Source: a virus. Taken from it: a DNA stretch of 54,857 nt. Below the pieces are notes generated by a model, which saw only the letters and a list, made by a program, of their open reading frames with translations, was not told the DNA's origin and made no database searches. The DNA lies in IMG/VR virus record IMGVR_UViG_3300035698_027343; one strand, 5' to 3'. This document shows positions 49,146-54,796 of this stretch, one piece after another (the first letter of the stretch is position 1; each line of letters begins with the position of its first letter). Both the position numbers and the translations under genes were made by a program.

Positions 49146-49283
49146 ATGCTGGAACTGCTGTACACCGCTTGGACCGAGGCGCCCCTTTGGGCTTCGGTGT
49201 CGATTTCTGTCCTTCTCGCCGGCAGCGCGGTGGCCGTGCTCCCTTGGCGGGAGAAGGACTGGCCCAAAAGGAGCGAGGATTGA
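49146..49283 (+). CDS. possible small single-pass membrane protein (45 aa)
   Basis: ATG with GGAG upstream. Hydrophobic segment LWASVSISVLLAGSAVAVLPW. Below the ORF-track cutoff, speculative. Confidence 0.25.
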   Translation: MLELLYTAWTEAPLWASVSISVLLAGSAVAVLPWREKDWPKRSED

Positions 49284-49298
49284 GACATAAGAAGGATG
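49282..49298 (+). promoter_or_regulatory. GGYATAAGAAG-family motif, copy 1 (GAGACATAAGAAGGATG)
   Basis: One of 8 or more similar intergenic copies on the plus strand in 49.2-54.8 kb. Confidence 0.4.
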
Positions 49299-49346
49299 AC
49301 TAGAGGCACCTCAAACTCTTGTCATCTCCCTAGAAGAGGTTCTTTT

Positions 49347-49434
49347 GCCGGGCGGGGCTCTGGCCATCTCCAGATGGCCGAGTCTCGGCAGTCGTCCCCC
49401 CCCACTGTCGTGGATTCACAGAGATACCGCCCGG
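49347..49434 (+). ncRNA. candidate structured small RNA (closing 9-bp stem GCCGGGCGG/CCGCCCGGC, internal perfect 8-bp hairpin GGCCATCT-CC-AGATGGCC)
   Basis: Non-coding interval between two copies of the promoter-like motif. Followed by a U-rich tract (CGTTTTATCT). Confidence 0.25.
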
Positions 49435-49468
49435 CATCTCTTCTTAGCCGTTTTATCTATGGACGATA

Positions 49469-49485
49469 ACCGGCATAAGAAGTGT
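49469..49485 (+). promoter_or_regulatory. motif copy 2 (CCGGCATAAGAAGTGTG), ~65 nt upstream of the MVP start
   Basis: Motif family. Divergent with a minus-strand variant at 49434..49448. Confidence 0.45.
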
Positions 49486-49549
49486 GCGATGAGGCGCATT
49501 TACCTAGCTGGTCGTTTACCTCATTCACGATCAACCTCAGGGAGAACTC

Positions 49550-54098: not shown

Positions 54099-54114
54099 AA
54101 GCAGAGGCAGGATT

Positions 54115-54136
54115 GAGCTCCCTTCGGGTTGAGCTC
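54115..54136 (+). terminator. hairpin GAGCTCCC-TTCG-GG(TT)GAGCTC with UUCG tetraloop (terminator or processing site)
   Basis: Inverted repeat, followed by TCCGGCAGTTGTTTCATTT. Confidence 0.35.
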
Positions 54137-54167
54137 TCCGGCAGTTGTTTCATTTACCTATTGAAAC

Positions 54168-54184
54168 CTGCCATAAGAGGGATG
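54168..54184 (+). promoter_or_regulatory. motif copy 7 (CTGCCATAAGAGGGATG)
   Basis: Precedes GGGAGGTG at 54199. Confidence 0.4.
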
Positions 54185-54712
54185 CTACTAAACCATGGGA
54201 GGTGTAGCATTTCTATCCGCACCGCAATCCTGCATACGGTCACCCTCGCCGGAGCAGCGTACTTTGTGCGCGACTCCGGTTCCTACGTCGTGGGACAGAC
54301 TCGCGACAAAGACGAACTCGGCGACGCCATGAAAGTTGTCGACTGGCTCCTAGAACTCGAGTTCGAGGACGTGACGGATGAAGCCAAGGCCCTGGGTGTC
54401 GCCTTTGGCACTTGCACGTACTTCCGGGCCACCATCCCCGAGGGGGTGGAAGCCTTCGAGAACATCGTCTTGTTCAGCGAGCTCGACCCCAAGGACTGGG
54501 GTCGTGTCCGCATCCGCATGAGCGCGCATGGAGAAGAAGAACTCGTCATGGAAGGCCTCGAGCCTATCAAGACGGACGTCATACACCTGTGCCTAGGCCC
54601 CGACGATGACGGCCAGCTCAGGGTGTACTTCTGGTACCCAGGCCGTATGACCACTAAGGTCACCCTGGGGGACAAGGCGGTCAAGTGCATGGCTGCGGTC
54701 ATCGGTATGTAG
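54182..54712 (+). CDS. hypothetical protein (about 176 aa; start unresolved)
   Basis: The ORF track starts at TTG 54113, but that start lies inside the hairpin. The nearest strong SD (GGGAGGTG at 54199) is followed by an in-frame ATT rather than ATG. Confidence 0.45.
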   Translation: MLLNHGRCSISIRTAILHTVTLAGAAYFVRDSGSYVVGQTRDKDELGDAMKVVDWLLELEFEDVTDEAKALGVAFGTCTYFRATIPEGVEAFENIVLFSELDPKDWGRVRIRMSAHGEEELVMEGLEPIKTDVIHLCLGPDDDGQLRVYFWYPGRMTTKVTLGDKAVKCMAAVIGM

Positions 54713-54779
54713 ACGCTCTTCTGAGCTCCGGCGGTCCCCTTCTGGGATCGCTCTGTAGCCTGCAAAAATAGCCCATTTT

Positions 54780-54796
54780 CGCCTATAAGAATTATG
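54780..54796 (+). promoter_or_regulatory. motif copy 8 (CGCCTATAAGAATTATG)
   Basis: 23 nt upstream of the ATG at 54819. Confidence 0.4.

Follow-up and report, generated by a model that had tools for sequence, protein, structure and literature searches.

Phage-encoded sigma factors are known to work from promoters built on a single element, such as the T4 late promoter, TATAAATA, which is read with gp55, and the promoters of phiEco32 gp36. Among bacterial sigma factors, the primary ones need T at -7, which is held in a pocket formed with region 1.2, whereas the -10 element of sigma-28 promoters is (-15)GCCGATAA(-8); in these, A-11 flips out, but the base at -7 stays unflipped and shows no conservation, since the region 1.2 pocket is missing from group 3 sigmas (PMC12784957). 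The -35 TAAA and the -10 GCCGATAA consensus are common to WhiG as well (PMC8325347). In T4-like phages, composites of a terminator hairpin and a promoter, termed PeSL elements, are repeated between small variable accessory genes (PMC2839356, PMC4122927). Here, we describe a recurrent intergenic motif, (T)GnCATAAGRRnnRTG, in a 54,857-nucleotide (nt) stretch of viral DNA, IMG/VR record IMGVR_UViG_3300035698_027343, which is referred to as the window. With a probability of roughly 0.6, we consider the motif to be the central element of a class of phage-specific promoters that lack a -35 element and are probably read by a WhiG/FliA-like sigma factor that is encoded in the same window (21797-22612).

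Most genes of the window lie in long minus-strand operons that are almost without intergenic space, and two plus-strand blocks, 31343-34601 and 48152 to the window end, diverge from these operons. The strong copies of the motif, eight in number and spanning 49283-54796, are all intergenic and all on the plus strand; beyond them, six weaker YATAAG copies and one GATAAG variant are found by other plus-strand genes. At up to two mismatches, TGGCATAAGAAG was observed 11 times against 3.26 expected, a number reached by none of 100 dinucleotide shuffles, and YATAAG-N5-TG occurs 14 times against 1.84 expected from such shuffles, with 13 of these sites on the plus strand. For a census of YATAAG itself, a gene map was made by hand, which divides the window into 2,112 nt of non-coding and 52.7 kb of coding DNA. 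Out of a total of 38 YATAAG, 14 fall in the non-coding part, every one of them on the plus strand, and 24 in the coding part (15 on the minus strand, 9 on the plus strand); the non-coding density is thus about 14-fold above the coding density, with complete strand bias. The initial annotation, which had proposed a virus-specific promoter, expected its idea to fail if the motif were equally frequent inside genes and randomly oriented, and this census shows the opposite. In addition, a matrix built from 30 sites of two related loci only (L006 and L009, described below), with the sites of the window left out of training, placed all eight strong copies and the site at 31572 within the top 10 of the window. 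A chance origin of the motif is excluded.

For the consensus, 49 sites from at least six lineages were pooled, with the hexamer numbered -12 to -7; these sites were selected for YATAAG, so that the core is fixed by construction and the informative positions are the flanks of the hexamer. The consensus reads T-rich at -19 to -17, G-14, C/T-12, A-11 T-10 A-9 A-8 G-7, and T-1 G+1. G stands at -14 in 43/49 sites and C at -16 in 32/49, position -12 is C in 41 and T in 8, and -6 and -5 are A or G. Downstream, T at -1 (35/49) and G at +1 (36/49) form a dinucleotide 6-7 nt after the hexamer, which is sometimes T-A; in some L009 copies it lies one base closer to the hexamer, a slippage that would be expected if the start site can be chosen flexibly. 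That G is preferred at -7 is evident from the L009 block, which holds 15 CATAAG, two CATAAA and no CATAAT, and other -10 registers that would place T at -7 were rejected, as A-11 is then found in only 59% of sites (29/49). For most copies, the distance to the GGAGG-type ribosome-binding site and start codon that follow is 11-40 nt, and the predicted +1 is the first base of GGAGGTG in three copies of the window.

No -35 element was found in the pool of 49 sites. The sole upstream signal is a weak excess of A at -32 (30/49, with 22/49 at -31), which comes partly from a recurrent upstream hairpin sequence in L009; the copy at 54086 has TCTAAAG at -35 to -29. A recurrent TTTAG(G/C) was considered as a -35 element and rejected, since its spacing to the hexamer varies from 1 to 25 nt in the window and from 4 to 12 nt in L009, and it is read here as the tail of an upstream hairpin. 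Folding of 42 sites placed the motif in no consistent RNA structure. Partial complementarity between the upstream flank, which is T-rich, and the downstream flank, which is rich in purines, is confined to a minority of copies, and the core shows no palindrome; the motif was accordingly not taken as a hairpin arm or a palindromic operator.

How does this motif compare with the systems introduced above? Its nearest counterparts in the proposed mechanism are sigma-28/WhiG promoters and the single-element promoters of phage-encoded sigmas; in architecture, they are the PeSL elements. As in sigma-28 (FliA/WhiG/SigD) promoters, ATAA occupies -11 to -8, in the same register, and the predicted start would lie about 8 nt after the last A, where T-G is found at 35-36 of the 49 sites; since ATAA was the anchor for site choice, only the T-G register is informative in this comparison. 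A G/C-rich extension just upstream and the dispensability of T-7 are also shared (PMC12784957, PMC8325347), and the phage sigma is closest to this group. However, positions -15 to -12 of the motif are n-G-n-C/T and not GCCG, G-7 is conserved whereas sigma-28 promoters do not conserve -7, the TAAA of TAAA-N15-GCCGATAA is not clearly present at -35, and the phage sigma falls far below the family-model cut-offs (36 vs 190 bits). By analogy with the structures of these promoters, G at -7 would be incompatible with a primary sigma and acceptable for a group 3 sigma.

The extended -10 promoter (TGnTATAAT), to which the motif had been likened in the initial annotation, has in common with it G-14, A-11 T-10 A-9 A-8, independence of a -35 element and a start about 7 nt downstream. 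The likeness is only partial. G-14 is kept, but T-15 is found in only 13/49 sites (TG directly precedes nCATAAG in four of the eight strong copies of the window), -12 is C and not T in 41/49, and the hexamer ends in G where T is essential. With A-11 invariant and -7 being G, membership of the primary-sigma extended -10 class was rejected. Like the promoters of T4 gp55 and phiEco32 gp36, the motif would be a uniform phage-specific -10-type element without a -35 element, used by the host core enzyme with a phage sigma; the consensus is a different one, the promoters of the window serve accessory cassettes instead of late structural genes, and the sigma of the window keeps regions 3 and 4 whereas gp55 is minimal. 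The hairpin-then-motif layout seen at several sites between the accessory genes resembles that of the PeSL elements, but these carry ordinary host sigma-70 early promoters and have been shown to be recombination points, while one close pair of relatives (L009 and L010) is without exchange at motif boundaries.

Further candidates were set aside. For sigma-54 (TGGCAC-N5-TTGC), GG and GC lie 12 nt apart in TGGCATAAGAAGGATGC instead of the required 10, 2 nt too long; GG is missing from many copies, and the following C is found in only 3/8. The integron attC site (RYYYAAC ... GTTRRRY around a hairpin) does not fit either, as TTTAG(G/C) and YATAAG are adjacent and both downstream of the hairpin, not at its ends; no integrase was found among the proteins in domain scans. 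The late ATAAG start motif of baculoviruses belongs to an unrelated polymerase system, and the resemblance is regarded as coincidental.

Relatives of the phage could be obtained only via a big protein database and alignment-based scans: single-protein queries against IMG/VR returned none, and block 4, the plus-strand block that begins at 48152, has no DNA match in the INPHARED phage collection. The 46 homologues of the sigma factor, at 30-91% identity, lie on metagenomic contigs of up to 199 kb on which gene order is kept, indicating that the phage, for which annotated relatives are nearly absent, belongs to a family of large phages. By these contigs, the window is part of a large uncultivated phage whose family reaches about 150-200 kb in its longest contigs; full genomes are about 200 kb, and the window shows 55 kb of one. 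A search with the sigma profile against bacterial and archaeal species genomes (GTDB set) found no relative, and hence no pointer to the host.

The motif is conserved across this family. Relatives that share 33-62% protein identity have 12-17 copies apiece, with orientation and accessory-gene block unchanged. A 279-aa (amino acid) protein beside the junction led to locus L006 (17 kb, 34% identity), and L007 and the near-identical pair L009/L010 (33-38% identity) were reached from the gene that opens block 4; in all of these, the motif-studded block lies on the strand opposite a long operon. L006 contains 12 YATAAG-N5-TG against 0.33 expected, and all of its 17 YATAAG are on one strand; L009 contains 16 CATAAG against 2.93 expected, of which 15 are on one strand inside one 8-kb block. 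In relatives traced by the sigma factor, the other junction carries, before the orthologous divergent genes, TGGCATAAGTAAGGTA (L004), GACATAAG (L002), two CATAAG (L012) or GTCATAAT (L005); copies at orthologous junctions are present in L007, L004, L012 and L002. The adjacent structural operon of about 19 kb in L002, L004 and L005 has none.

Two of the copies at divergent junctions are in the window (48061 and 31320) and others are at L007 1609, L009 9932 and L004 1105. At such a place no transcript arrives from upstream on that strand, so a promoter is required there. Together with the -10 geometry, the conserved upstream positions and the lack of a consistent fold, this argues that the motif is a promoter and not an RNA signal, and on the strength of these sequence features we regard it as likely to be one.

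The candidate reader of the motif is the 271-aa product of 21797-22612, on the minus strand within a long minus-strand operon. Pfam places sigma region 3 at 1.8e-8 (above the cut-off) and region 4 at 2.2e-4 (below the cut-off), and the NCBIfam FliA/WhiG model matches at 4.6e-9, with 36 bits where the family cut-off is 190. The best PDB sequence match is WhiG (6pfv), and the profile matches WhiG and SigA over regions 2-3. The AlphaFold model has a mean predicted confidence (pLDDT) of 85, with a low-confidence coil at residues 1-40, and the top Foldseek matches are all sigma factors, including full-length ones such as B. subtilis SigD, over 240-264 aligned columns. Regions 2, 3 and 4 thus follow each other in order in a protein with a sigma fold, as in the sigma-70 family, and by its profiles and predicted structure it is a genuine sigma-70-family factor of the WhiG/FliA type. 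Region 1.2 was not detectable, as alignments with primary sigmas begin at region 2 or skip the first 65 residues of the Taq fragment. No polymerase was found among the large proteins of the window by domain or PDB sequence matches, and phages with their own multisubunit polymerases are not known to encode sigma-70-type factors too. Provided that the motif is a promoter, this sigma would be its likelier reader, as far as the sequences tell.

The heads of both long operons carry another signal. There, TACACT, TAGACT or TAGGAT is followed after 6-9 nt by ATG, without a ribosome-binding site, at seven loci, giving the pattern TA(G/C)(A/G)(C/A)T. In the window (31271-31285, minus strand), TACACT stands 6 nt ahead of the ATG with which the leading gene of the structural operon begins, a leaderless-like arrangement; in the relatives, the sites are at L002 1024, L004 1139, L012 1253, L006 8723 and L007 1641 on the plus strand and L009 9900 on the minus strand. 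These sites look like the TAnnnT hexamer of primary sigmas, placed as for leaderless messenger RNAs (mRNAs). With the canonical class at the operon heads, CATAAG is the non-canonical one of two classes, which suggests a regulatory cascade, and the sigma gene itself sits in an operon headed by the canonical class. As a speculation, leaderless starts, a WhiG-like sigma and strong GGAGG sites elsewhere would fit a host rich in leaderless mRNAs, belonging to Actinomycetota, Deinococcota or similar.

We propose the following mechanism. Each copy would provide a -10-like element, with G-14 and C/T-A-T-A-A-G at -12 to -7, from which transcription would start at the conserved T-G, sometimes T-A, 6-7 nt past the hexamer; a -35 element would be absent, with a T-rich stretch at -19 to -17 instead. 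The polymerase would most likely be the host core enzyme with the phage WhiG/FliA-like sigma. The promoters would serve a block of small units, mostly of one gene each, that lies on the opposite strand to the long operons, some copies would drive only short structured non-coding stretches, and the hairpin with a ...TTTAG tail before about half of the copies would be the terminator of the preceding unit. The host primary sigma would transcribe the long operons, including the sigma gene, and the phage sigma would then turn to the CATAAG units. A wider picture, which we offer only as a tentative one, is that a phage family of 150-200 kb has its own sigma-28-like factor with a new, -35-free GnCATAAG specificity, with leaderless operons under the host sigma followed by cassettes and RNAs under the phage sigma; the order of events would be unusual, in that long replication and structural operons, the sigma gene among them, would come first from canonical leaderless promoters, whereupon the phage sigma would activate dozens of accessory cassettes of one gene each along with several structured small RNAs, including one of about 300 nt with a tRNA-like acceptor stem, T arm and CCA end.

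Several observations weigh against a promoter class read by the phage sigma. Sigmas of the WhiG/FliA type usually have a TAAA -35, which the class in the window is without, and -15 to -12 is unlike GCCG. L005, whose sigma is the most diverged (44% identity) among the relatives with observed junction sites, has CATAAT and CATAAC at these sites, which is nearer to a canonical -10. The sigma gene lies among tail and baseplate genes, which is odd for a factor that switches on accessory genes including a DNA-ligase-like one, and L006, L007 and L009 are seen over about 20 kb each, within which the sigma was not shown to be encoded. Finally, a strict detector of a hairpin plus T-run finds a terminator before only 7/43 sites, so that an own terminator is claimed for roughly half of the units at best.

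Some of these points would suit a host sigma as the reader of the same promoters, be it the primary sigma, perhaps with a phage co-factor, or an alternative one; in that case, the block would represent an early region for host takeover, with other genes left to the phage sigma. The position of the sigma gene in a structural operon is as for a late-acting factor, blocks of small, functionally unassigned genes with individual strong promoters are typical of early regions, for example the T4 early genes and PeSL elements (PMC2839356), G-14 resembles the extended -10 G, and L005 has CATAAT. Yet G is strongly preferred at -7, where primary sigmas need T (PMC12784957), T-15 is not conserved and a -35 element is lacking, and the canonical TAnnnT class is already present at the operon heads of the same genomes; we therefore hold reading by a host sigma to be possible though unlikely. 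The initial annotation had also offered an RNA processing site. As a cleavage or 5'-end-defining site in RNA, it would let a host or phage ribonuclease cut long plus-strand transcripts into single-gene mRNAs, the 3' ends of which would be shielded by hairpins, and strand specificity and intergenic placement do suit RNA as well as DNA, as do the strong hairpins just upstream. But at the divergent junctions, beside the start of an opposite-strand gene, the plus-strand transcript would need a promoter inside that gene, and a scan for sigma-70-type promoters offers no alternative, with two hits in the window block (1.6 expected), one in L009 (1.3) and one in L006 (2.5). G-14, the T-rich -19 to -17 and a Y-R step fixed 6-7 nt downstream are promoter geometry, and the motif lies in no consistent RNA fold, which leaves processing of RNA highly improbable.

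The motif might also be a binding site for another protein, such as the operator of a repressor or activator, the promoter of a phage RNA polymerase encoded outside the window, or a boundary for cassette recombination. With only 55 kb of a genome of about 200 kb in view, further transcription proteins are conceivable, the flanks are partly complementary in some copies, and the combination of hairpin and motif is reminiscent of the PeSL elements, by which shuffling is mediated in T4-like phages (PMC4122927). The complementarity, however, is confined to a minority of copies around a core that is not palindromic, and no polymerase-like protein is among the large proteins of the window. Comparison of L009 with L010 revealed three indels, which lie inside genes or replace an intergenic stretch and are not cassettes excised at motif boundaries; exchange at such boundaries is thus unsupported, although this is one close pair only. 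We regard this group of explanations as very unlikely. A virus-specific promoter, perhaps for the encoded sigma, as first proposed, has remained the best-supported reading, given the strand and intergenic bias, the conservation, the geometry, the divergent junctions and a genuine sigma factor; the link to this sigma is a putative one.

A phage-specific intergenic promoter motif is as such a familiar kind of finding, and the mechanism is not new. The novelty lies in the consensus and in how deeply it is conserved within an uncultivated phage family, in its contrast to the canonical class of leaderless promoters, and in a plausible partner, the WhiG/FliA-like phage sigma; no paper on a phage CATAAG promoter was found in the literature. 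A precise promoter consensus, plus a candidate sigma, is hereby available for a deep-branching uncultivated phage family without annotated relatives. If the pairing is true, it would represent a natural group 3 sigma whose specificity has shifted to a G-terminated -10 element with no need of a -35, which would inform the reading of -10 elements by sigmas without region 1.2 and provide an orthogonal sigma/promoter pair. The motif also marks the boundaries of transcription units and can thereby improve gene calling, as illustrated by the non-coding RNA candidates, the probable ATT start and the spurious open reading frames (ORFs) mentioned below.

The copies, all on the plus strand, are as follows, with bit scores taken from the independent matrix. 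AGACATAAGAAGGATG (49283-49298, 17.7 bits) is the distal member of a tandem pair, overlaps the stop codon of a 45-aa ORF and is followed by about 170 nt of structured non-coding DNA; the proximal member, CGGCATAAGAAGTGTG (49471-49486, 22.7 bits), stands 64 nt ahead of the vault-protein-like gene, which starts at 49550. TGGCATAAGAAGGATG (52323-52338, 22.6 bits) lies just 3' of the hairpin 52280-52309 and 29 nt before the ATG at 52367. In another tandem pair, the distal TGGCATAAGAGACGTA (53320-53335, 19.6 bits) precedes about 100 nt of structured non-coding DNA, and in CGTCATAAGAAGAGTG (53436-53451, 22.5 bits), 11 nt before the ATG at 53462, GGAGGTG begins with the predicted start G. The last pair has TGGCATAAGAAGAATG (54083-54098, 19.7 bits) as its distal member, with about 70 nt containing a hairpin downstream, and TGCCATAAGAGGGATG (54169-54184, 17.8 bits), 25 nt before the probable ATT start at 54209. 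GCCTATAAGAATTATG (54781-54796, 16.0 bits) is found 24 nt before the ATG at 54820. All eight had been listed in the initial annotation, seven of them correct to within 1-2 nt and the remaining one at 53309 instead of 53320.

Among the weaker copies, CGGTATAAGCCCCTTG (48058-48073) is at a divergent junction, 79 nt before the ATG at 48152 of the first gene of block 4, and has orthologous CATAAA sites in L007 and L009, TGGCATAAGCCTCCTG (48483-48498) is 11 nt before the ATG at 48509, and GCGTATAAGTACAGTG (48803-48818) directly precedes a non-coding RNA candidate of about 300 nt with a tRNA-like end. The other plus-strand block, 31343-34601, contains a TAGTCATAAGTAGAGTG-type copy (31569-31584, 16.9 bits) and the variant CATAAGGACGG (32096-32111), which is without TG and stands before the DNA-ligase-like gene (ATG 32129); the GATAAG variant GGGAGATAAGCATTGTA (31316-31331) is at the first divergent junction, 12 nt before the ATG at 31343. 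The status of CGGTATAAGCCCTATG (35951-35966), in a 128-nt gap between two minus-strand genes, is uncertain: it would drive a short or antisense transcript towards the gene 36065-36793, and the structure downstream is not significant (z -0.5). The weaker GGYATAAGCC variants that had been pointed out are indeed present at 48058, 48483 and 35951. By contrast, two minus-strand variants could not be upheld, as the one at 22913 is a lone copy inside a gene that is not conserved in relatives, and the one at 49434-49448 has no ATAAG and belongs to the 3' arm of a long hairpin. The claim that the motif precedes every plus-strand gene of the block is true of nearly all, the genes at 49146 and 53035 having no copy of their own; these two look co-transcribed. 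Likewise, a distance of 10-80 nt to the start codon describes the proximal copies (11-79 nt) and not the distal copies of the three tandem pairs, which are farther upstream.

About half of the copies come after a stable hairpin with a T-rich tail, typically a T-rich run that ends in TTTAG(G/C). Segments of 72 nt upstream of the sites have a mean z of -2.14 against -0.48 in controls, and z is below -2 in 19/43 sites against 11/80 controls. The hairpin-then-motif layout is clear at 52280-52338, at L006 7749, 5924 and 3893, and at L009 11700 and 14499. In the window, a perfect 15+15 palindrome (52280-52309) after the vault-protein-like gene is followed by TTTCTCTTAGC and is terminator-like (dG -35.2, z -6.3); a long hairpin ending in CTTCTTAGCC (49330-49447; dG -64, z -5.0) lies between the tandem copies 49283 and 49471; a long-range stem followed by CTTTAGC (53336-53428, z -3.2) lies between 53320 and 53436; and a hairpin with a T-rich tail (53238-53303, z -2.6) comes after the gene 53035-53232 and before the motif at 53320, all on the plus strand.

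A tandem arrangement, in which a copy, 70-300 nt of strongly structured non-coding DNA, a further copy and a gene succeed each other, is found at three places in the window and at several in L006. These spacers, 49299-49470, 53336-53435 and 54099-54168 on the plus strand of the window and 7385-7100 and 4780-4640 on the minus strand of L006, have a T-rich tail at the end and no match in Rfam. Such a spacer might encode a small phage RNA with a promoter of its own, or be an empty cassette that gene loss has left behind. L006 also has, in a 600-nt non-coding gap of its accessory block, 5-7 tandem repeats of about 20 nt, GTAGATGGGRARTCTG (about 520-640, minus strand), which are iteron-like and would be a possible replication origin or protein-binding array.

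The non-coding stretch of about 300 nt directly after copy 48803 (48822-49118, plus strand) has tRNA-like ends. Its GGAGGTA (48822-48828) is paired to TGCCTCC (49108-49114), 49091-49107 form a perfect T arm, ACGGG-TTCGAGT-CCCGT, and G and an encoded CCA follow (49115-49118). Next to the T arm is an 8-bp helix (GCCGCACC / GGTGTGGC), an arrangement shared with the tRNA-like domain of transfer-messenger RNA (tmRNA). A G3:U70 pair, a plausible tag reading frame and a D arm are all lacking, and the fold of the whole stretch has a z of -2.7. ARAGORN, with introns allowed and relaxed thresholds, found nothing convincing and Rfam nothing, none of 185,579 species genomes contains the 26-nt 3' end exactly, and no homologue is present in the other loci; with all of these searches negative, reading the stretch as a tRNA, a tmRNA or a phage attachment site was rejected.

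The recognisable parts of the window include a baseplate-J-like giant protein, an SNF2 helicase and DNA-ligase-like, GroES-like, sigma-70-family and vault-protein-like proteins. The vault-protein-like gene (49550-52258, plus strand) encodes 902 aa with the shoulder domain of the major vault protein, and its local G+C content is 64%, against about 55% in the remaining window. The protein has more than 2,000 homologues, the named ones being chiefly from metagenome-assembled genomes of Myxococcota at 37-43% identity, and only three uncultured huge phages in INPHARED match (LR756500, LR756501 and LR756503; 36-37% protein identity). The gene looks like a fairly recent acquisition that was fitted with two phage promoters and a strong terminator.

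On the minus strand, a GroES-like co-chaperonin (43634-44011) and two small unlisted genes (43502-43621 and 46590-46720) occupy apparent intergenic gaps; one of the small genes encodes a ribbon-helix-helix-like protein (MAKEERLQLRMDEELKIWFKKHAAVKG...) and the other a zinc-ribbon protein. For the plus-strand gene 54209-54712, the sole in-frame start that is positioned as in its neighbours (GGAGGTG, 4 nt, start) is the ATT at 54209, a probable rare initiation codon judging by this placement, and the ATG at 54195 is out of frame with the gene. A 103-aa minus-strand ORF (31302-31613) overlaps the plus-strand gene 31343-31551, which has GGAGGTG, 3 nt and the ATG at 31343, with the motif variant upstream; the minus-strand ORF is probably spurious.

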